The notes beneath the pieces are model-generated. The model worked only from the letters and a program-made list of their open reading frames with translations, was not told the origin of the DNA and did not search any database. A program made the translations under genes and the position numbers. From sequence record NC_054894.1: a stretch of DNA of 49,526 nt; one strand, given 5' to 3'. Of the stretch, positions 1-49,526 are shown one piece after another. The stretch's first letter is position 1; each line of letters starts with the position of its first letter. Source of the stretch: Escherichia phage Henu7.

Positions 1-610
1 GCTGCACAAAGCACGCAGCCAGTTTGTTAAGGTGAAGAAAGATCGCCAAAACACACACCTAAAAAACAAATACGCAACTCTTGACAGCGTTCTTGATGCA
101 ATCACGCCAGCATTGACAGAAAACAAACTTATGATCATGCAGGACGGCGAGCGTATCGAAAGCACAATGCGCGTTGAAACGACCGTGATCCACATTTCCG
201 GTCAATGGGCTAAATTTTACTTTGATATCCCAATAGTCAAAAACGACCCGCAAGGCGTAGGATCTGCTTTCACATACGGGCGACGTTATGCGCTTGCTGC
301 TGCTTTCGGATTGAGTCAGGCTGACGACGACGCGCAAATTGCCGTTAAGTCTGCGCAGGATTGGAAACGAGATCTCGACAAGTGCGAGACTGTAGACGAC
401 TTGCAAGGCGTGTTGCGTGATGCGTGGAAGTCAAGCGACAAAGCGAACCAGGTGATCATTAAAGAGCACTACGAGAAGCGAAAAGCAGAGATTGAGATAG
501 GAAGCGCTCGCGGTTTTAGCGCCGCAGCTCCAAAGCAAAACCTTGCCGCTAAGGTTGACGAGCCGCAAAAGCAAGCTGTAGAATCACAGCCAATCACCAG
601 CTTTGAATAA
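1..610 (+). CDS. ERF-family single-strand annealing recombinase, 5'-truncated by window edge
   Basis: Frame is open from nt 2; the track ORF starts at GTG 32 with no good RBS. N-terminal pattern [12 protein letters not shown] and GRRYAL motif resemble ERF. In a circular join an in-frame stop lies 11 codons upstream with no ATG, so the gene most likely continues beyond the window. Confidence 0.55.
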
Positions 611-4059: not shown

Positions 4060-4500
4060 TTAGCTATTTGTGCTGTTTATGAAGTCCGACTCTTTCACTA
4101 CGCGCAGCATTTCGTATCGGTCACATTTCGTCGTTAGCGCTTTGCCGTTTGAGTCAAATCTCAGATCTGGACGGCAGAATGAAGCGCGATAGCCCTTGCA
4201 GCCGTTTCGCTTATAGTCGGCGTGAACCTTTTCGGCTCCAGAAACGGAAATCATTCCGCGCTTGCGCCACTGCTGGATAACCTGGTGAGTAACCTTTAAG
4301 CGCCTTGTCATTTCTGCCTGAGATCCGTAATATTCGCAAACGGCATCCAGACGAGCACGCAATCCGGCTTTGACTTCATCCTTTAGAACGTAGTAGCCTG
4401 TTTTTCGCTTGCGCTTTTTCTTGTCCTTACCGCGCTTTACACCGTTGTTGCCATTGATTGTGCGCTTGTCAATTTCGCCAGTTGATGCAGCAATTTTCAT
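4060..4500 (-). CDS. helix-turn-helix DNA-binding protein (candidate early regulator)
   Basis: Start at ATG 4500 with GGAGG RBS; basic region KDKKKRKRK; HTH-like segment SQAEMTRRLKVTHQVIQQWRKRG. Confidence 0.55.
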   Translation of the reverse strand: MKIAASTGEIDKRTINGNNGVKRGKDKKKRKRKTGYYVLKDEVKAGLRARLDAVCEYYGSQAEMTRRLKVTHQVIQQWRKRGMISVSGAEKVHADYKRNGCKGYRASFCRPDLRFDSNGKALTTKCDRYEMLRVVKESDFINSTNS

Positions 4501-4513
4501 ATTAAAACCTCCG

Positions 4514-4532
4514 ATAGCACTTTTTGCTAAAA
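4514..4532 (+). promoter_or_regulatory. palindromic element TAGCA-N5-TGCTA in divergent region between HTH gene and helicase
   Basis: ATAGCACTTTTTGCTAAAA; TATTAT hexamer 22 nt downstream at 4552..4557. Confidence 0.45.
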
Positions 4533-4589
4533 ACATTCAAAACGTATGCGCTATTATACATTCAATCGGTTAACGAATAAAGGTTAAAA

Positions 4590-6592: not shown

Positions 6593-7009
6593 ATGGTTAC
6601 TGACAAAGGCGATTATCTGGAATATTACGAACGGGATCCGAGCGACACACGCAAGGAGGATTCACACCAGGTTGATTGTGTGGCGTGGTTGCGCCACCAT
6701 TACCCACACTTGCTCTTTTGGCACACTGTTAATGAGGGGAGCAAGACGATCACCACCGCGCTGCGTGACGAACAGGCCGGATTGCTAAAAGGAGTATCCG
6801 ACTTTGTTATCCTGATTGGTTCTGGTAAATACCCGTTTGCAGCAATAGAGCTAAAGCAAGCCAACAAATCAGGGAAGCGCAAAGCCTCACCAGTCAGCGA
6901 TAACCAGAAAGCTTTCTTGAGCAAGGTCAGAGCGCTTGGTGGATTTGCCGCTGTGTGTTATGGCGTTAAGCAATTCAAGATTGCGATCTCAGATCTTTTA
7001 TGTGAATAG
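6593..7009 (+). CDS. VRR-NUC domain nuclease
   Basis: Start ATG 6593 with GGAG RBS right after helicase stop; motifs GVSDFVIL and AAIELK are PD-(D/E)xK-like. Confidence 0.65.
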   Translation: MVTDKGDYLEYYERDPSDTRKEDSHQVDCVAWLRHHYPHLLFWHTVNEGSKTITTALRDEQAGLLKGVSDFVILIGSGKYPFAAIELKQANKSGKRKASPVSDNQKAFLSKVRALGGFAAVCYGVKQFKIAISDLLCE

Positions 7010-7024
7010 CACTTTTTGCTAAAA
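7006..7024 (+). promoter_or_regulatory. palindromic element plus hairpin upstream of lipoprotein gene
   Basis: ATAGCACTTTTTGCTAAAA, hairpin GGCGCAAAGGAATGCGCC, CATAAT at 7044..7049, leader CAACGAAACAAAC. Confidence 0.45.
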
Positions 7025-7081
7025 CAGGCGCAAAGGAATGCGCCATAATGCACCCAACGAAACAAACACGGAGAATTAACC

Positions 7082-7360
7082 ATGAAAAAGATGTTATCAG
7101 TAGTTGCTTTATCGCTTTCCATTGTCGGTTGCATGGATAAACCAAAAGCATATATTTGCGGAAATGAAGTGTTTGAGGTTACAAGCGAATACATGAAAGT
7201 TGTAAAAGGTAAAAACACAGGCGTTGTAATGGATAATATCAGCAAAAATAAATACAAGCTGTTTACGCCAATTGGAACAGCTTTTTACACTGTTAACGAT
7301 AGCACAATTGATGTTAGAGTCGGAATCTTTCAGCACACTTTAACTTGCGAGGTGAAATAA
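7082..7360 (+). CDS. small lipoprotein (moron; candidate superinfection-exclusion protein)
   Basis: Signal peptide with lipobox LSIVGC; AT-rich codon usage relative to neighbours; own upstream regulatory unit. Confidence 0.6.
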   Translation: MKKMLSVVALSLSIVGCMDKPKAYICGNEVFEVTSEYMKVVKGKNTGVVMDNISKNKYKLFTPIGTAFYTVNDSTIDVRVGIFQHTLTCEVK

Positions 7361-9092: not shown

Positions 9093-10211
9093 ATGATTCA
9101 GAAAATGACAGACCAGCAGTTTAAAGACGCACGAGCGGAGGGTAAAACCTACAAGCAGATCGCGGAGGAATTTGGCTTGAATGTTCGCACAGTTGAGCGA
9201 CGAGCGGCAAACCTTGCTCGCAAGGGTGAGACTGACGCGAAAGGCGCTCCAGGTTTTGCGGTTGTTCGCGAGTCAGTCCTTACGCGTGCGAACGGCGAGG
9301 AAGTTATGCGCTGGACTATCACCAACAAGGATAAAGAGCAGTTGGAGGCATTAATGCAAGCCGCTATGGAAGCATTCGCAGAGGAAGTGCCACGCCTTGA
9401 TCCTCAGCCTGAAAGCCGCAAAGACTACAGCGAGAGCCTAGCGCTATACCCAATCTTTGATATGCACATTGGCGCAATGGCTCACAAGCATGAGTGTGGT
9501 GAGAATTGGGATACGGCAACAGCCGAAAATGTCATGAATGACTTCTTTGATTATGCGGTTGAGTGTGCGCCAAATAGCGAGAAAGCCGTGCTCCTGATTG
9601 GTGGAGATATGCTTCACAGTGACGGCCTTGAGGCTGTAACACCTGCCAGCGGTCACGTTCTGGATCAGGATAGCCGCTACGCCAAACTTGTTTATGTCGC
9701 AATCCGAGCAACGCGCCGCGCTATCTCCTTGATGTTGACCAAGCACAAAGAGGTTGAAATTCAGGTGATCGAGGGCAATCATGACCAATCAGGCATGATC
9801 TGGCTACGCGCAGCAATGGCTGCGGCATACGAAAACGAGCCACGAGTTACGGTTGATGTTTCTCCCCGCGTGGTGCATCACACGCAGTACGGAAAAACCT
9901 TCCTCGCGTATCATCACGGTCACACCGTGCGCAAGCCTGAAACGTTATTGATGATGTGTGCGGCAGATTGGCGCGAGGATTTTGGCAAATCAAAATCAAT
10001 GTATGCTCATGTAGGCCATTGGCATCACCAGACCGTAACAGAAACCAGCCTGGGGATTGTTGAAGTTCACAGCACTATGGCGGCTAAAGATGCGTATGCG
10101 GCACGCGGCGGCTGGCGCTCTCGTCGTCGCGCGGCGGTTATCATCTACGACAAAGAGCACGGCGAGATCGGGAGATTTATGTTCTACCCTGAAATGATGG
10201 AGTCAAAATAA
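9093..10211 (+). CDS. HTH domain fused to calcineurin-like metallophosphoesterase
   Basis: N-terminal HTH YKQIAEEFGLNVRTVERR; metallophosphoesterase motifs DMHIG, GGDMLHSDG, GNHD, HHGH, GHWHH; RBS AAGAGGA. Confidence 0.6.
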   Translation: MIQKMTDQQFKDARAEGKTYKQIAEEFGLNVRTVERRAANLARKGETDAKGAPGFAVVRESVLTRANGEEVMRWTITNKDKEQLEALMQAAMEAFAEEVPRLDPQPESRKDYSESLALYPIFDMHIGAMAHKHECGENWDTATAENVMNDFFDYAVECAPNSEKAVLLIGGDMLHSDGLEAVTPASGHVLDQDSRYAKLVYVAIRATRRAISLMLTKHKEVEIQVIEGNHDQSGMIWLRAAMAAAYENEPRVTVDVSPRVVHHTQYGKTFLAYHHGHTVRKPETLLMMCAADWREDFGKSKSMYAHVGHWHHQTVTETSLGIVEVHSTMAAKDAYAARGGWRSRRRAAVIIYDKEHGEIGRFMFYPEMMESK

Positions 10212-14416: not shown

Positions 14417-14470
14417 GATTTTCCCCTTTCGTTTGATGTGGTTGCATAATAGCGGATCTAATAGACCCGC

Positions 14471-16153: not shown

Positions 16154-16347
16154 TATTCACTCTCCAGTACGGTTACAGGATCCAGACGCTCCAGCACAAC
16201 TTTGAAGTCGGCAAAGAATGTCGGCCTACGTTCGGTTAACTCTGTATAGGTGTCAGTCGCCAGCGTTGCGCATTCACCTTCATAGCACACCACACGCTTT
16301 CCGTTCTCGCGACTGATTGCCACCACGCGATAGGTATTCTTGACCAT
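16153..16347 (-). CDS. hypothetical protein
   Basis: GGAGG RBS; ATG overlaps upstream stop. Confidence 0.45.
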   Translation of the reverse strand: MVKNTYRVVAISRENGKRVVCYEGECATLATDTYTELTERRPTFFADFKVVLERLDPVTVLESE

Positions 16348-16547
16348 TAAATAACCTCCATCACAGTATGCTCGTCACCAGCAAGTGACCAGAGAGTGTT
16401 AGTAAGTTGCTTCACTTTCCAGGTTAGGCCGGAGTGATAGCAGACCATTTCCTCAAGGTCTATTGTGATCTCAACGCCTTTCTTGAAGATCCCACGCGTC
16501 AGCTCTGGATTGCGGCGAATAACTTTAACGTCGATCTGGTCTTGCAT
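16347..16547 (-). CDS. hypothetical protein
   Basis: Start ATG 16547 with RBS CTGAGGAA and leader AACGAAAC; the longer track ORF starts at a TTG inside the palindrome. Confidence 0.45.
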   Translation of the reverse strand: MQDQIDVKVIRRNPELTRGIFKKGVEITIDLEEMVCYHSGLTWKVKQLTNTLWSLAGDEHTVMEVI

Positions 16548-16604
16548 TTTTGATTCCTCAGTTTCGTTTTGTTGAGGCAATGATAGCGCATCGCCTCTGA
16601 TTGG

Positions 16605-16625
16605 TTTTAGCAAATCGTGCTATTC
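16605..16625 (-). promoter_or_regulatory. palindromic element
   Basis: Minus strand reads GAATAGCACGATTTGCTAAAA then TATCAT hexamer and CAACAAAACGAAAC leader. Confidence 0.45.
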
Positions 16626-16887: not shown

Positions 16888-16944
16888 TTTCGTTTTCCTC
16901 AGTTCGTTTCGATGAATGCATTATGCCAAATCCAGATCACGGAG

Positions 16945-16965
16945 TTTTAGCAAAAAGTGCTATTC
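16945..16965 (-). promoter_or_regulatory. palindromic element plus CATAAT upstream of leftward early operon
   Basis: Minus strand reads GAATAGCACTTTTTGCTAAAA, then CATAAT, then leader. Confidence 0.45.
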
Positions 16966-17253
16966 AATCGGTAGTTAGATGATTTGGTGATTTTCTGACC
17001 TGCATTTTGATGGTTAGTTTGATGTGCGTCAGCTTTTGACGAGATTTGATGATTGTTGATTAGATTTGATTGAATTTGATTGTGGGAATCATCATGGTCT
17101 GACGATGCCGTTTTTGCGCTCTCGAAAACTCCGTTCTGTTATCTTCTGTTTACACTCGTTTCCTCTTGTTACCGAAAGTACGGTGGCGTAGTTTGTTCGC
17201 GTTTTTCGCGTGGCAGAAACAAAAAAAACTTTTAATCTCCCTATAAACAACTA

Positions 17254-17296
17254 ATAAAATCAATAGTTTATTTTATATATATTATATTTGTTTTCA
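17254..17296. repeat. AT-rich conserved element, copy 1 (second copy at 47770..47815)
   Basis: 17-bp identical core ATAAAATCAATAGTTTA followed by a TTTATAT(A/G)TAT-type tract. Confidence 0.7.
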
Positions 17297-17549
17297 CTAC
17301 GTTATACTTGTTCCATATGGTATGGGGTGGTTATGGGATTTTATTATTGGTGGTATTGGTTAATTTATAGGCATGTTCCGCTCAGGATGTGTGCGATTCA
17401 TCATTTCGTTGTGGTTGCTTTGGGTGACATATACATATCTATTATGGCCTCCGAAAAAACTGTAACACCGGTAACATGGAAAAAACACGTTTTGTGGTTA
17501 AGCAAATCAGCAACTTACGACAAATTTTGTTTTTCGGCTCAAAAAAAAC

Positions 17550-17578
17550 TTGTGGAAACCGATTGTAACATGCATAAT
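17550..17578 (+). promoter_or_regulatory. candidate sigma70-type promoter for rightward early operon
   Basis: TTGTGG, 17-nt spacer, CATAAT, preceded by an A8 tract; followed by CGAAACGAACAAATGGAGG leader and ATG 17611. Confidence 0.4.
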
Positions 17579-17610
17579 GCACCCCGAAACGAACAAATGG
17601 AGGTAAAACG

Positions 17611-18036
17611 ATGTCAGATCAATCATTTGGCGATCAGTTGCGTGCAGCAGCGCGAATGTTGGCGAGTGGTGAGCGTGATGAAATCATCATGACCGACTAC
17701 CAGTTACAGCAAGCGTCCGGCAGGGAGAAAATCAACCCAAGCCATATCCGTACAACTATGGCGCGAGAGGTTCGCACCCTGGGAGCTATCAGCGTGAAGC
17801 GAATCACGGATCCGATGGGGTACGTTTGCACATTCAACCCTGACCCGAAAAAGCGAGCGATTGCCAGCGACGAGCTACCAGCAATCAAGGCGCGTGCGGC
17901 TAACAAGGCACTGAAAGCAATTGCAGACGTGATGCCAAATCTCACAGACCTGGAGGGCGAGCAGTTGCAGGGCGCTATCATTGCAGTGCAGCGCTACCAG
18001 GATTTAATCAAGAAGCAAATCAAAGAGGAGGCTTAA
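17611..18036 (+). CDS. hypothetical early protein
   Basis: RBS AAATGGAGG; first ORF of the rightward early array. Confidence 0.55.
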   Translation: MSDQSFGDQLRAAARMLASGERDEIIMTDYQLQQASGREKINPSHIRTTMAREVRTLGAISVKRITDPMGYVCTFNPDPKKRAIASDELPAIKARAANKALKAIADVMPNLTDLEGEQLQGAIIAVQRYQDLIKKQIKEEA

Positions 18037-18306: not shown

Positions 18307-18325
18307 ATAGCACTTTTTGTTAAAA
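18307..18325 (+). promoter_or_regulatory. palindromic element plus hairpin plus ATAAT
   Basis: ATAGCACTTTTTGTTAAAA, hairpin TGCCCCGCGCGAGTGGGGCA, ATAAT, leader CTCAACGAAACGAA. Confidence 0.45.
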
Positions 18326-24207: not shown

Positions 24208-24226
24208 ATAGCACTTTTTGCTAAAA
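24208..24226 (+). promoter_or_regulatory. palindromic element plus hairpin containing TATAGT
   Basis: ATAGCACTTTTTGCTAAAA, hairpin GGGGTAGGCTGG-TATAGT-TACCCC, leader ATCGAAACGAAAC. Confidence 0.45.
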
Positions 24227-29740: not shown

Positions 29741-30490
29741 ATGAAGGTAAAAGGAATCGTTAAACAGTGGCGATTCCCCGAAGCCAGCGAGCGGCAATTA
29801 AGCCGCTCCATTAAAGAGGCTGTAAGGGATCTTGTTGTGTTTATGCGCAGCAAAACAAAGGCGATGAAGTTTGATGCTACAGATCAGGAGATCAGCAGCG
29901 CAGAGGACGAGATCAAGGAGTTCGCAAAAGATCTTGCTCTCTCCCTGATTGGTCTGCTTCCCGCGCTCGCGTCGGCTGTTTACAAGTTCAACTCAAAGCA
30001 GTGGGTTAATGTTGCGAAGTCAACCGGAGGGGCTAACAATCCAGTTATCATCCTGCTAATCGCAGTCGGAGCCAATCAGGGCGAGGATTGGTATAAAACA
30101 CTTTACGGAGAGTGGTACAACATGAGCGCCGCCTCGTTTGACAAGCTTTTCACCAACATAATTAACGACTGGTCTGCTAACATACGCCAGGCCAATTTCA
30201 CCGGAAAGAAAGCGGATCAGGTGAACGAGATCGCGGAACGTCGTTTCATGGTCTACTCGTCTTGGGCTGGAAACCGCGCAACGGGAATCATTGGATCGTG
30301 GAATAGCCGACTCATGCGCCAGAGGTTGCTAGATGCTGGGGTGAATTCTTATTACTGGCATGGTATGCTAGACGAGCGCGAGCGACTCAAGCACTTACAA
30401 TGGGAGGGAAAGGAGATCGGGATTGACGAGATTCACCCGTTCCCTGGTGAGGAGTACGGTTGCAGATGTTGGGCGATTCCAAAATGGTAG
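29741..30490 (+). CDS. head morphogenesis / minor capsid protein
   Basis: Position after portal; size 249 aa; assignment by synteny only. Confidence 0.45.
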   Translation: MKVKGIVKQWRFPEASERQLSRSIKEAVRDLVVFMRSKTKAMKFDATDQEISSAEDEIKEFAKDLALSLIGLLPALASAVYKFNSKQWVNVAKSTGGANNPVIILLIAVGANQGEDWYKTLYGEWYNMSAASFDKLFTNIINDWSANIRQANFTGKKADQVNEIAERRFMVYSSWAGNRATGIIGSWNSRLMRQRLLDAGVNSYYWHGMLDERERLKHLQWEGKEIGIDEIHPFPGEEYGCRCWAIPKW

Positions 30491-46179: not shown

Positions 46180-46209
46180 AAGGGAGCCTTGCGGCTCCCT
46201 CTTTTTTTA
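46180..46209. terminator. intrinsic terminator between convergent J-like gene and leftward gene
   Basis: Hairpin GGGAGCCTTGCGGCTCCC followed by TCTTTTTTT. Confidence 0.7.
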
Positions 46210-46539
46210 CATCAATTTGTTGTGGTCAACAGGGATTCTGTTTGTTTGCTTGGTGATCATATCAAGCTTGTATTCATCGCCGCGCTTCCACTCGAATCGA
46301 AGGGTATACGTGTTAGCGTCACCGTAGCACATTACGTGCTTGAATTTTCGCAAGTGCTTATCAAAGATCGCGTTTGTGCTCTCCTCAATCTTCAACGTCC
46401 GATCTGAGCAGTTTACAACGGCGACGGTTGAGCCAGTAAGAGACATTCTGGAAGCTTCAACCGGATAGCCGATATTAACGTTCAAAGCCATAGCGTTTAA
46501 GGGAGCTACAAGAGCCATAGCGAGCATGATTTTTTTCAT
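46207..46539 (-). CDS. secreted/periplasmic small protein (candidate superinfection-exclusion or receptor-masking factor)
   Basis: Start ATG 46539 (MKKIMLAMALVAPLNAMA...) with signal peptide; own regulatory unit upstream on minus strand. Confidence 0.55.
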   Translation of the reverse strand: MKKIMLAMALVAPLNAMALNVNIGYPVEASRMSLTGSTVAVVNCSDRTLKIEESTNAIFDKHLRKFKHVMCYGDANTYTLRFEWKRGDEYKLDMITKQTNRIPVDHNKLM

Positions 46540-46596
46540 TTGCATTTCCTCGTTTCGTTAAGTTGAAATGAGTATAGCCCCATTTGCGTGGCTTGT

Positions 46597-46614
46597 TTTA
46601 GCAATTTGTGCGGT
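46597..46614 (-). promoter_or_regulatory. palindromic element plus TATACT
   Basis: Minus strand reads CCGCACAAATTGCTAAAA, then TATACT and leader AACGAAACGAGGA. Confidence 0.4.
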
Positions 46615-47267
46615 TAGTTGTAACCCTGGAATTTTGCGTATGGTATTTTGAGGTTTCCGCGCCCGTTAAATATTTCAGAGAAAGATCGCTGGTTTCTTCT
46701 GATCCAGTATGTCTGCAACTGCGAACCAGTCCAGCGCATGAGGTTTCCTGAATAACCCTGCGTTTCTCCGTCGTCGCTCCATTCGCCGTAGCAGGCATCC
46801 CAGAGAAAGAATGGGTTAAAACCTGGAGTCACTGAGGCAACGTTAGCCTCAAGGTTGAATGAAGCCGGAACGTCAAGGAATCCCATTATTCGAGGCATTG
46901 TTGCGGCGCTAGCGGCAGTCCAAACAAGATTACCGGAAGCGTCGAATACGTCGAGATAGCCTGACGTAAGCGCCTTGTTTCTCGAAGTCCTGATTATCCT
47001 GATTGCGTTAGTGCTGAACATATCCGCGCCAGGGTAGCCCCACTGGTTATTACCTGTAAACTGAATCCAGGTTAGAAAGCCATCCTTGCGCTTATCACCA
47101 TCGCGAAGATTGCCAAGGGCTTTAACGTTGCCAAATGGCGTGCTTAGGCTGTAAGCCCCAACGTCAATTAGCGGTTGCGGAGTGTAGATAGAATCAAAGA
47201 TCGTATGCTTTTGATCTGAGTTGATCAGGACAACACCCGCGTTATTACGTACCTCAAAGCCTGACAT
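46614..47267 (-). CDS. hypothetical protein, paralog of next gene (possible tail-fibre-associated)
   Basis: Shares DASGNLV motif with 47276..47581. Confidence 0.45.
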   Translation of the reverse strand: MSGFEVRNNAGVVLINSDQKHTIFDSIYTPQPLIDVGAYSLSTPFGNVKALGNLRDGDKRKDGFLTWIQFTGNNQWGYPGADMFSTNAIRIIRTSRNKALTSGYLDVFDASGNLVWTAASAATMPRIMGFLDVPASFNLEANVASVTPGFNPFFLWDACYGEWSDDGETQGYSGNLMRWTGSQLQTYWIRRNQRSFSEIFNGRGNLKIPYAKFQGYN

Positions 47268-47275
47268 AAAGCCTC

Positions 47276-47581
47276 CTAGTTAAACATGTAAACTTCAATG
47301 GTAAGAGTCTGATCAACAAGCGGATTGCTTGTTGGCAGGTAAAGAACATCAACGCCGCCGTTTCTCGTCACGGCTGCATAGCTTGGTTTATACACAGCGC
47401 CAGCAGATGCCGCCATGACAACCGCGAACGAGTTGGAACCAGTCAGCCCAGCTACGTTGAAAGAAACCGCGCGAGTAGTTCGCGGGAATGAAATGTTTTG
47501 CCGGACAACAAAGCGCGTACTGAAATCGCCAAGATCGACAACCAGGTTTCCGCTTGCATCCCAGGCTTGAAGACCAGGCAT
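47276..47581 (-). CDS. hypothetical protein (DASGNLV motif)
   Basis: Motif WDASGNLVVD; first gene of a leftward unit transcribed out of the AT-rich control region. Confidence 0.45.
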   Translation of the reverse strand: MPGLQAWDASGNLVVDLGDFSTRFVVRQNISFPRTTRAVSFNVAGLTGSNSFAVVMAASAGAVYKPSYAAVTRNGGVDVLYLPTSNPLVDQTLTIEVYMFN

Positions 47582-47769
47582 AATGCCACCTCTCTAGTTT
47601 GCTTATTAAGTGCATTTAATATACAGGCGCGGCGTAATCATTTCAATGGCAAATGCAAAACCTTACCTTGATTGTTCTTTTTGTTTCTCGATGTTCTCTA
47701 TTGCGCCCACCGCAGAATCGCACAACGTTTCAGAACAGAAAAAACAAAATAAATCATCTATAATATATA

Positions 47770-47815
47770 ATAAAATCAATAGTTTAGTTTATATGTATTT
47801 GTATATTGTTATTTA
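47770..47815. repeat. AT-rich conserved element, copy 2
   Basis: ATAAAATCAATAGTTTA identical to 17254..17270, followed by a similar TTTATATGTATTTGTATATTGTT tract. Confidence 0.7.
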
Positions 47816-48030
47816 TTGTTTCCAGTGTTTCAGTGTTAATTGATGTACTGGCTTTCTTTAGTCTTGATATCTCTATTATCCATTTGATGTGTGTATTTAT
47901 ATAAACCCCACCGCAAATCCGTGAACAATGAAACAAAAAATAACGACGTTTAAAATCATTCACTTAAGAGCTGATTTTGTTATCGAGGTTGAAAGATGTG
48001 TTTCGAGAACAGAAAAAACAATTGAAGGTA

Positions 48031-48058
48031 TTGACTAAACGCCACAAATGGCTACAAT
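48031..48058 (+). promoter_or_regulatory. candidate sigma70 promoter for recombination operon
   Basis: TTGACT, 16-nt spacer, TACAAT, about 30 nt upstream of RBS CAGGAG and ATG 48089. Confidence 0.5.
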
Positions 48059-48088
48059 GCACGTATACCAACACACAGGAGCGAAAGA

Positions 48089-49147
48089 ATGAGTGAGTTT
48101 AAAGTTTTCACTAGCGCAGAAATGCCGAACGAGGTTTATCACGATCCGAATAGCTGGACGGCTGAGTACACAAGCGGATCGAATCTGGCTGAGGTTTTCC
48201 AGTCCTCCCCCGCATCCTGGAAATTTAAGGAGCGAGACGAAAACGCAAAGCCGCTAATTTTCGGCACTCAGTCGCATACAAACTTTGAGAGCAAGGCACT
48301 GTTTGAGGCTCAATATCGCAGAGCGCCAGCGCCGGAGGACTTCAAAGATCTTATTACCAGCCAAACGGCTCTCGCTGCGAAATTGAAATCTTTCGGCCTG
48401 AAAGGTACAAGCGGGAAGCAGTATCCAGATCTGATTAAGATGATGGTTGATTGTGGTGAGGATTTGCAGGTTCAATGGCTGATTGAAATGATCGCAGAAT
48501 CCGAAGCGCGTGCGGCTGGGGTTGAGCTTGTAAACGCAAAAGATTATGACGCTTGCGTAGCCATGCGCCAGGTTCTTGAGTCGATACCAGAGCACAATGC
48601 GTGCATGAATAGCCCAACAGCACAGCGCGAGCTTTCGATTTTCGGTGTTATCAATGGCGTTAAGGTTAAAGTACGACTTGATCACATTGACGAATGCGAA
48701 AACGTAGAGTTTACGCTAATCACTGGATATGACGACAAAGGACAGCCGATTTGCGAGGACGTTATTTATCCTGAGGCTATTGTGATCACGGACTATAAAA
48801 CCACAATGAGCGCCAATCCTCTTGAATTTGAGCGCCTGGCATTCAATCACGGCTACTATTTAAAAATGGCCTTGCAGCATGATTTATTCCGCAAGGCTTA
48901 CCCGAACGAAACGCGCCCCGTAGTGGTTCGACTTCTGGCGCAGGAGAAGAAAAAGCCTTACTTGCCGCTGGCGTACCGAATGAACAGCGAGCAACTCAAG
49001 ATCGGGCGCATTCAGTACATGAGCGTAATCAATCAGTTTGCAATGTGCCAGGCGCATAACATCTGGCCTTCATACGCAAACGGAGCGCCGGAGGTTTCGC
49101 TTACTACTCCTGATTGGGTTCGCCGCCAATACAAAGAATTTCTGTAA
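48089..49147 (+). CDS. PD-(D/E)xK family exonuclease (recombination exonuclease partner of ERF)
   Basis: Motif ITDYKT followed by YY..Q, typical of RecB/Cas4-like nuclease motif III; located upstream of ERF and SSB. Confidence 0.55.
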   Translation: MSEFKVFTSAEMPNEVYHDPNSWTAEYTSGSNLAEVFQSSPASWKFKERDENAKPLIFGTQSHTNFESKALFEAQYRRAPAPEDFKDLITSQTALAAKLKSFGLKGTSGKQYPDLIKMMVDCGEDLQVQWLIEMIAESEARAAGVELVNAKDYDACVAMRQVLESIPEHNACMNSPTAQRELSIFGVINGVKVKVRLDHIDECENVEFTLITGYDDKGQPICEDVIYPEAIVITDYKTTMSANPLEFERLAFNHGYYLKMALQHDLFRKAYPNETRPVVVRLLAQEKKKPYLPLAYRMNSEQLKIGRIQYMSVINQFAMCQAHNIWPSYANGAPEVSLTTPDWVRRQYKEFL

Positions 49148-49188: not shown

Positions 49189-49518
49189 ATGCCTCCATCA
49201 AGTCAACAAAGAGAGGATATCAAAATGGAAAACATCACCAATGAAGAAATGATTAGCGCGGCATGCGAAGCTCATATGAGTATTTTTGTACACCGCATCA
49301 CTTTCGCCATGAAGGACTTTGTTAAGCCGCTCAATCCGGCAGACGGCGAAGAAGAAATGAAATACATCCGTGATGTGATGGAGGCGGTTTACAACGTTGT
49401 GGCGACTGCGCTGATGGTCAAAGAGGATCCCGAAGCAATCAAGATGATGAAGGAATCCACCGACAAGCTTATCAATCAGCTTATCGAGATCCATAACGGC
49501 GGCGAAGTTAAGCACTAA
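49189..49518 (+). CDS. hypothetical acidic protein
   Basis: RBS GGAGGTG before ATG 49189; an alternative start at 49225 is possible. Confidence 0.45.
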   Translation: MPPSSQQREDIKMENITNEEMISAACEAHMSIFVHRITFAMKDFVKPLNPADGEEEMKYIRDVMEAVYNVVATALMVKEDPEAIKMMKESTDKLINQLIEIHNGGEVKH

Positions 49519-49526
49519 TCAATAAC

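Follow-up and report, generated by a model that had tools for sequence, protein, structure and literature searches.

What is the role of the 500-bp gap that separates two divergent gene blocks of Escherichia phage Henu7 (NC_054894.1)? The window, by which we mean the whole stretch of 49,526 nucleotides analysed here, is essentially the complete genome of a T1-like siphophage (49.5 kb; Drexlerviridae, Tempevirinae, Henuseptimavirus). The gap (47582-48088) is flanked on one side by small leftward genes, which lie beyond the J-like tail-tip gene and the first of which has its start codon at 47581, and on the other by recE. T1-like phages are abundant, are notorious laboratory contaminants, and are used in therapy collections. 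How they regulate their genes and where they start replication is essentially unmapped: according to recent genome papers, the origin has not been found, and only three host-type promoters are predictable. A first-pass annotation described the gap as an AT-rich control region homologous to another one at 17 kb, and suggested that a common regulator or architectural element acts at both. We find that positions 47664-48088 are one of two paralogous, ~400-bp non-coding cassettes. With moderate confidence, we read them as cis-regulatory cassettes in which IHF-bent DNA carrying multiple binding sites would control early promoters of the host RNA polymerase.

The homology of the two regions had been proposed from a shared 17-mer, ATAAAATCAATAGTTTA. 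It occurs exactly at 47770-47786 and 17254-17270 and nowhere else in the window, even when 2 mismatches are allowed, and 0 copies are expected by chance (100 shuffles). With exactly two copies, the 17-mer is not a common low-complexity word of the genome. When the two regions are aligned by BLAST within the window, only a 32-nt box around the 17-mer is alignable (47768-47799 on the plus strand, identical to 17252-17283 at 30/32 positions), whereas a profile hidden Markov model (HMM) and a joint alignment reveal colinear homology. In particular, an HMM built solely from Tempevirinae recE-upstream sequences (the R2-only HMM) matches 17155-17560 of the window across most of the profile (E=7.7e-23), and matches the corresponding region of phage swan01 with E=1e-43. 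Each genome has one further locus only, and neither the R2-only nor the joint HMM finds a third copy. In accordance, within-genome pairwise comparison reveals colinear similarity between the two regions of swan01 and between those of TLS. In the joint alignment of eight cassettes from four phages, the order of the blocks is identical and each cassette ends in a sigma70 promoter. The joint HMM, applied to T1, which is outside the training set, finds exactly two equivalent regions (239-436, E=1e-4; 30008-30368, E=2e-3). The two-copy arrangement is present in every T1-like genome checked for both copies, namely swan01, TLS, Samwise, and, weakly, T1. Therefore, the two control regions are indeed homologous, and far more strongly so than the 17-mer implied. 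When the 87-aa leftward gene is used as bait for more 17-kb regions, three close relatives only are retrieved.

The gap itself consists of two parts, a left segment of 80 bp and a cassette of ~425 bp, because relatives with other left genes regain homology at 47664-47672. BubbaBully, AS5, P-K7R, TLS, and atuna have different left-hand genes and keep the homology from this point up to recE. The left segment (47582-47663, minus strand) is replaced in these five phages, and is kept only alongside the leftward genes, as in IsaakIselin, JohannLBurckhardt, Samwise, and, partly, N5822. It carries the predicted promoter (TTGAAA-17-TATATT, 47646 down to 47618; promoter scan) and the ribosome-binding site of the gene starting at 47581. 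The leftward promoter of the gap thus sits in a separate, non-homologous 80-bp module outside the cassette. The leftward gene set (46207-47581, minus strand) differs between relatives, and the leftward genes adjoining the gap have no Pfam match. The left edge of the cassette at 47664-47672 and the end of the J-like gene probably form a recombination boundary at which the leftward module is swapped. As a swap boundary, the left edge is useful for phage engineering.

The cassette proper (47664-48088, plus strand), which we call the R2 cassette, is covered by the R2-only HMM at 47670-48085. It is found upstream of recE in 185 phage records, whatever lies leftward, and at 44 IMG/VR loci; nine relatives are aligned. 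In close relatives, the identity of the cassette is 95/90/88/77%, versus 87/81/88/56% at the four-fold degenerate sites of recE. The same comparison for distant clades is discarded because shuffled sequences already align at 62%. In the record of Enterobacter phage N5822 (MW032452.1, 78,128 bp, 'circular'), the recE-upstream region is present twice in ~1.6 genome lengths, which is most likely a concatemeric assembly artefact.

The gap is non-coding, as the first-pass annotation had stated. Depositors annotate ORFs of 30-40 codons here in BubbaBully, AS5, and N5822, and TATAAT at 47759 or ATGAAA-17-TAAAAT at 47928-47956 could start transcripts, as expected if the gap encoded a small protein or a non-coding RNA. 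However, 7/7 small ORFs of the gap are broken by stops or frameshifts in relatives, even in close ones. No Rfam match reaches the gathering score, the fold z-scores are -1.48 and -0.83 versus shuffles, and no terminator is found in the gap. A small protein or RNA product is therefore very unlikely.

The R2 cassette ends in a sigma70-type promoter at 48031-48058 on the plus strand. The promoter scan gives 10/12 matches, with the -35 element TTGACT at 48031-36, a spacer of 16 nt, and the -10 element TACAAT at 48053-58, in agreement with the earlier proposal. The Shine-Dalgarno sequence AGGAG (48077-48081) and the ATG (48089) of recE follow, and the predicted transcription start is at ~48065. The promoter is conserved family-wide: 39/44 distinct recE-upstream sequences have the strict pattern, defined as TTGACT (≤1 mismatch)-15..18-TA[ACT]AAT, and the others keep TTGACT with a variant -10 element. 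In TLS, only three sigma70-type promoters are predicted, including 'P51' (recE) and 'P01' (left end) (German et al. 2024, PMC11447400). P51 (ttgactacatgaaacaaagacataataat) is the counterpart of 48031-48058 of the window, and P01 terminates the 17-kb-type cassette of TLS. The TLS paper (PMC11447400) lists the promoter hexamers only; the ~400-bp cassette, its duplication, the IHF-type sites, and the pentamer arrays are not described there, and iterons are reported as absent throughout the TLS genome. The promoters of the 17-kb-type cassettes in swan01, TLS, and Samwise also point outward, and combine TTGACA or TTGACG with TATAAT, GATAAT, or CACAAT.

The promoter reading is favoured because the cassette promoters are two of only three predicted in TLS (P01 and P51). 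It is also favoured because both copies end in an outward host-type promoter, an IHF-type site lies at a fixed and promoter-typical distance, and the last repeat box, box C, abuts the -35 element. In the proposed mechanism, E. coli RNA polymerase would initiate at ~48065 from TTGACT-16-TACAAT. The cassette would thereby control the recE-erf-ssb recombination operon, and its paralogue would serve the left-end small-gene operon at 17 kb. Within the 32-nt box there is no conserved -35/-10 pair on either strand, and a canonical promoter in the box is rejected. The minus-strand GTGAAA-16-TAAAAT at 17297-17270 has no equivalent at 47.8 kb.

The 32-nt box contains the first of two IHF-type sites. Site 1 (AATCAATAGTTTA, 47774-47786, plus strand) is a perfect match to the IHF consensus WATCAANNNNTTR, and is centred ~-285 from the predicted recE start. 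The consensus has 4 matches in the window, and 2 of them are the shared boxes (47774-86 and 17258-70). The earlier suggestion of an architectural element common to both regions thus holds in silico, as the shared 17-mer fits the IHF consensus and repeat words described below are exclusive to the two regions. Judged by its sequence, the shared 17-mer core is an IHF-type site. Among 45 recE-upstream sequences, three Tempevirinae clades have a perfect site 1 in the equivalent position, 312-349 nt before the ATG. The clades carry TAGT, TGGT, TAAG, or TGAG, and the changes are confined to the N positions of the consensus. Outside the lineage, the 17-mer is not diagnostic because most matches are due to chance: an IMG/VR scan with the exact 17-mer gives at least 119 matches, only 5 of them in related phages and the rest chance AT-rich matches.

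Site 2 (AATCATTCACTTA, 47954-47966, plus strand) has one mismatch, at position 6, and its centre is ~-105 from the predicted start. With ≤1 mismatch, it is present 133-146 nt upstream of the ATG in 41/45 recE-upstream sequences, and many relatives have a perfect match. In Tempevirinae, where the site is on the plus strand, the base at position 6 is A, T, or G. In T1-type phages, a perfect site lies on the minus strand at an unchanged distance to the gene, and 2/4 N positions vary among 11 distinct sequences. In each of three sequence sets, with 11, 21, and 6 distinct sequences, variation spares WATCA(A) and TTR, and 2-4 alleles occur at the N positions and in the flanks. The 5' flank of site 1 is A/T-rich (TATAATATATAATAA); that of site 2 is less clear (CGACGTTTAA). 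This pattern of constraint suggests that IHF binds at sites 1 and 2.

Does the near-identity of the two 32-nt boxes reflect function at all? The box could be a functionless gene-conversion tract between old, diverged promoter regions, with the AT spacer serving as UP-like or curved context. In accordance with this, the window's two regions are not alignable by BLAST outside the 32 nt, an island of 30/32 in ~60%-identical paralogues is what conversion produces, and the 17-mer arises by chance in many unrelated IMG/VR contigs. In addition, swan01, Samwise, and TLS have the consensus core in one cassette only, and T1 has it in none. However, the core is identical at 17/17 positions between genera with ~69% surrounding identity (atuna and swan01 versus the window), and its variation is limited to the IHF N positions, which argues for purifying selection on the site and not for drift. 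We therefore regard a functionless tract as unlikely. The window lineage is the one with a near-identical AT-core box in both cassettes, which suggests either that the box was converted recently or that selection favours the site in the two cassettes alike.

In addition to the IHF-type sites, the R2 cassette contains a series of short repeats. Pentamers of the form TGTT[ACT]/[AGT]AACA are denser here than anywhere else in the genome (15 in 367 nt versus a mean of 2.7, z=6.5). The next densest locus is the 17-kb copy, and the ranking is identical in swan01. The pentamers are grouped in five clusters (L, A, M, B, and C), within which neighbours are 8-10 bp apart and thus helically phased. Array L (47673-47697, plus strand) consists of TGTTC, TGTTT, and TGTTC starting at 47673, 47682, and 47692, with 9-10 bp phasing. 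It reads TTGTTCTTTTTGTTTC across Tempevirinae, and T1-type phages have GTGTAACA...TGTAAC there instead. A GC island follows (CCCACCGCAGAATCGC, 47706-47721, plus strand), which is a direct repeat of CCCCACCGCAAATCCG at 47906-47921; in alignments of relatives, the GC islands appear as CCGCAGAAT and GGCGTAAAT.

Box A (AGAACAGAAAAAACAA, 47732-47747, minus strand) runs opposite to array L and is made up of two pentamers, GAACA at 47733 and AAACA at 47742. Box C at 48006-48021, also on the minus strand, is identical to box A and lies 9 nt 5' of the -35 hexamer (~-59 to -44). Boxes A and C are the direct repeat of the first-pass annotation. The repeat is real (0.06 expected) but the coordinates were off by one: the 14-mer GAACAGAAAAAACA lies at 47733-47746 and 48007-48020, and the full repeat is the 16-mer AGAACAGAAAAAACAA. 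Box A is nearly invariant in Henuseptimavirus and recognisable in other aligned Tempevirinae, and box C is kept in every aligned Tempevirinae sequence. An UP element would be an A/T-rich sequence at -40 to -60; the A6 tract of box C falls at ~-52 to -47, and T1-type phages have TTACA words and no A-tract there.

Array M (47807-47838, plus strand) consists of TGTTA, TGTTT, TGTTT, and TGTTA starting at 47807, 47817, 47826, and 47834, with 8-10 bp phasing. The T1 equivalent reads GTGTAACA...TGTATA...GTGTAACA. A variable G/T-rich stretch separates array M from the second GC island (47906-47921), which lies just before box B (GTGAACAATGAAACAAAAAAT, 47921-47941, minus strand, pentamers at 47923 and 47931). 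Between box B and box C there is a conserved word, AAAATCATTCACTTA.

The phased pentamer clusters are nearly exclusive to the two loci. All copies of the 8-mer GAAAAAAC in the window (4/4) lie within the two regions, and in T1 the words TGTAACA (6/6 copies) and GTGTAACA (4/4 copies) lie in its two equivalent regions. Words that differ between lineages and are restricted to two loci suggest a sequence-specific binder, which is probably phage-encoded. A Keio screen with the T1-like phage LL5 showed no requirement for a non-essential host regulator. We therefore infer a pentamer-binding protein, most likely made by the phage. A Cro/YdaS-like helix-turn-helix protein (4060-4536, minus strand) is no more than a candidate for the binder: it is 57% identical to the T1 protein, its putative recognition helix differs, and nothing links it to the boxes. 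Rejected as a further cassette is the pentamer-rich stretch 6946-7345, in which the matches are unphased and mostly coding. A search of the R2 cassette for CRP, LexA, and ArcA-type direct repeats finds none.

One further word had been taken for a shared signal and fails as such. TTTGATGTG is present at 47883-47891 and 17018-17026, but at chance level. The 9-mer is also found at 14432, inside a gene, and TTTGATG occurs 16x in the window. In close relatives, the position reads TTTTATGTG, TTTGATATG, or TTTGGTGTG, so that the word is not conserved. The TTTGATG words at 17 kb are in the pac-proximal part, outside the shared cassette.

Between the flanking clusters lies an AT-rich core (47740-47839) with 83-90% A+T, which resembles a DNA-unwinding element. 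In a scan with nearest-neighbour energies (windows of 40, 60, and 100 nt), no duplex segment of the genome is less stable than this core and its 17-kb counterpart, which take the top two ranks (z=4.9-5.5; next best, 3.4). In both copies, the composition of the top strand flips from A-rich to T-rich at site 1. A perfect TATAAT without a -35 consensus (47759-47764, plus strand) is positioned directly 5' of the shared box of the core, and may be a -10 element. Several clades keep it as CTATAAT or CTATATAAT, as do swan01 and TLS in their 17-kb-type cassettes, and other clades have TATATAC. The cassette has dyad symmetry about the core because its HMM matches its own reverse strand (E=2e-7).

These features raise the question of whether the cassettes are the unmapped replication origins of Drexlerviridae, either two origins, or one and an auxiliary site, or dual promoter-origin modules. 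In that case, a phage initiator or helicase loader would bind the pentamers in the manner of iterons, the core would serve as the DNA-unwinding element, and IHF would assist by bending. As at the origins of T4 and T7, the core would be opened or primed by transcription, either from the early promoter or from the TATAAT at 47759-64, which would fire into it. The instability of the two segments (z ~5 versus 3.4 for the next), the short repeats that flank the core on both sides in opposite orientation, and the IHF consensus inside the core all fit an origin. So do the lineage-specific repeat word, which is exclusive to two loci like iteron/initiator pairs, and the fact that each genome has a related pair of elements. 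Among the phage proteins are a primase, a DUF3987 helicase, a superfamily 2 (SF2) helicase, and a single-stranded DNA-binding protein (SSB), and no recognised initiator. The T1-like origin is reported as not found (PMC11447400, PMC7718038).

Several features do not fit an origin. An origin alone would not need the outward sigma70 promoter that terminates both copies at a constant distance. Instead of tandem 17-22-bp iterons, there are repeats of 5-7 bp, dispersed in small clusters. There is no DnaA box (TTWTNCACA, ≤1 mismatch) and no GATC cluster; 47582-48088 contains no GATC at all. In addition, the primase and helicase genes lie elsewhere, no initiator is identified, and the cassette has no similarity to any plasmid sequence. 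Taken together, an origin function, alone or combined with the promoter, is the main alternative, though we hold it to be fairly improbable.

Origins with short repeats flanking an AT-rich region are known from SaPI ori, SPP1 oriL/oriR, P4 ori/crr, and pSC101. The cassette shares with them an AT-rich, unwinding-prone core with an IHF-type site, and lineage-specific short repeats in both orientations. Each genome has a pair of related cis elements, which is also the case in SPP1 and P4, and the last repeat is directly followed by a promoter, as in pSC101. Unlike those origins, the cassette has no adjacent initiator gene or DnaA boxes, and its 5-7-bp repeats form loose clusters.

The R2 cassette is bounded by an imperfect inverted repeat of 28 nt. 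Its arms (47664-47691 and 48003-48030) are 71% complementary, with 311 nt between them. The repeat brackets the conserved block, as the terminal inverted repeats of a mobile element resembling a miniature inverted-repeat transposable element (MITE) would, and two insertions would account for the two copies; the 17-kb region of Samwise carries a more R2-like one. However, every genus examined has exactly two syntenic copies, no others, and no visible target-site duplication. The arms fall on boxes that look functional, and the right one directly adjoins the -35 element. No transposase is encoded nearby, and the cassette is absent from plasmids. Empty sites and non-syntenic copies are absent across >180 genomes, which refutes such an element; we regard it as highly improbable.

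The reading of the cassettes as IHF-assisted early promoter regions makes the following predictions for the geometry. Host IHF would introduce a bend at site 2 (~-105) and, in the window lineage, another at site 1 inside the AT-rich core (~-285). The bends would fold the upstream DNA, such that the clusters L, A, M, B, and C bring their bound proteins together over the promoter. The unstable core could act as a supercoil-sensitive element. Both operons, which are presumably early, would be switched jointly, either boosted at the start of infection or shut off later.

Several observations weigh against this reading. The ~370 bp of dense sites and a melting core 250-285 bp from the promoter exceed what a simple promoter needs and also fit an origin. 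The 17-kb promoter of the window has a weak -35 element (TTGTGG). Site 1 is absent from the T1-type and TLS-type recE cassettes and is therefore not essential to the design of the cassette. The word AAAATCA occurs 4x in the gap (47749-57, 47772-78, 47951-57, and inverted at 47972-78), and could be the target of another protein with overlapping specificity. In the Keio screen of LL5, ihfA/ihfB, arcA, ompR, and fis are not among the genes needed for plating, and IHF is therefore at most modulatory in LL5, not essential there. LL5-type phages have no site 1 at recE and have site 2 with one mismatch. The literature searched gave no binding, bending, or transcript data for T1-like phages: on T1 promoters, IHF, origin, and transcriptomes, only the TLS, SU57, and LL5 papers are relevant, the T1 and Rtp genome papers being outside the search. 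Within the same scope, neither the cassette nor its duplicated state nor the IHF-type sites are described.

IHF-assisted early promoters of phages include lambda pL, where IHF acts with a distant UP element, and Mu Pe, where IHF binds between the operators O1 and O2. The cassette resembles them in having a strong host-polymerase promoter, presumably early, with an IHF-type site ~80-110 bp upstream, where the bend would carry upstream A/T-rich DNA or an operator-bound protein to the promoter. It differs from them in having no sequence homology to either, two IHF-type sites, five phased pentamer clusters, and a melting-prone core ~285 bp upstream. In addition, the phage is virulent and has no known repressor, and LL5 showed no IHF dependence. 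At ilvPG, IHF bound in the supercoiling-destabilised (SIDD) upstream element UAS1 activates the downstream promoter. In the cassette, likewise, an IHF-type site lies where the A/T-rich DNA upstream of a sigma70 promoter melts most easily. The distance is ~285 bp here and ~92 bp in ilvPG, and the stability computed here is linear nearest-neighbour stability, not SIDD. Neither ilvPG nor the origins named above are related to the cassette in sequence. The cassette is thus composed of known element types in an undescribed, family-wide, duplicated arrangement. What was a 500-bp gap becomes a defined cis-element with numbered parts, present twice in each T1-like genome checked for both copies, which offers experimental handles on its binders, on tuning by IHF, and on the start of replication.

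The paralogous cassette (17155-17610, plus strand) is located in the other large non-coding region of the window (16888-17610), between a leftward operon and a long rightward operon of small genes that reaches the terminase genes; the first rightward gene starts at 17611. From left to right, it comprises an A-rich box (17217-17235), the shared box (17252-17283) with the IHF consensus (17258-17270), and TAACA pentamers at 17463 and 17472. Its right end has an IHF-like sequence (AATCAGCAACTTA, ~17505-17517), an A-tract, and TTGTGG-17-CATAAT (17550-17578). The sequence GGGATTTTATTATTGG (17337-17350), ~85 nt rightward of the shared box, contains an inverted copy of the start of that box (TAATAAAATC). 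The 47.8-kb cassette has no equivalent inverted TAATAAAATC at ~85 nt; the nearest is TGATTTTGTTAT at 47972-47983. The left-end cassette of T1 contains three tandem CGATTAACA units (cgattaacacgattaacacgattaacc, 395-425), without a counterpart in the window. In Samwise (OY639337.1 13500-16500, ~1270-1742), the right half of the 17-kb-type region has given way to a copy that is much more similar to the cassette upstream of recE, and a different gene comes first downstream, which indicates replacement of the cassette together with the gene by recombination.

The gene that follows the R2 cassette, recE (48089-49147, plus strand), is the first gene of the operon that the cassette would serve. It encodes an exonuclease VIII-like protein, with the Pfam PDDEXK-like domain DUF3799 and the name exodeoxyribonuclease VIII in the annotation of relatives. 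ERF follows recE and spans the end of the window, and the part of erf at 32-610 matches Pfam ERF from profile position 16. Because the window begins within erf, the operon wraps around the window ends (1-610 and 49189-49526), and the record is a permuted genome. Of the exonuclease-ERF-SSB operon proposed earlier, recE and ERF are thus confirmed by Pfam, and the name SSB comes from the annotation of Escherichia phage IsaakIselin (Bas10) alone. The neighbourhood of the gap is 97.8% identical to this phage, and the gene order agrees with its record. Elsewhere in the window, the second leftward gene from the 17-kb region (16347-16613, minus strand) matches Pfam PF25180, 'phage antiviral trigger protein Gp54', and a 372-aa protein (9093-10211, plus strand) has a weak N-terminal match to sigma70 region 4-like or helix-turn-helix domains.

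The other repeated non-coding element of the family is a 21-nt repeat (aaATAGCACnnnTTGnTAAAA; consensus ATAGCACnnnTTGnTAAAA), with ~22 copies in the window and 26 matches at ≤3 mismatches. Examples are 4514-4532, 7006-7024, 16945-16963 (minus strand, in the 17-kb region), 18307-18325, and 24208-24226. It is distinct from the cassette in that it is distributed genome-wide with each copy just 5' of a gene, and it has no match within 47582-48088 at ≤3 mismatches. Intergenic copies are followed by a short GC-rich inverted repeat, by CATAAT, TATAAT, or TATAGT ~19-22 nt downstream, and then by a ribosome-binding site; from this arrangement, the repeat looks like a phage-specific promoter class. The TLS authors list its function as an open question (PMC11447400).

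The deposited sequences of T1 and TLS begin within their 17-kb-type region, at the pac end. The TLS record opens with 45 nt (AGATTTTGTGATTGAAATTGATTTGATTTGATTAG) that match a run of GATTTGAT/TTTGATG words at 16990-17090 of the window, and the T1 record starts there. This run is probably the pac or packaging-initiation region, and lies outside the shared cassette.

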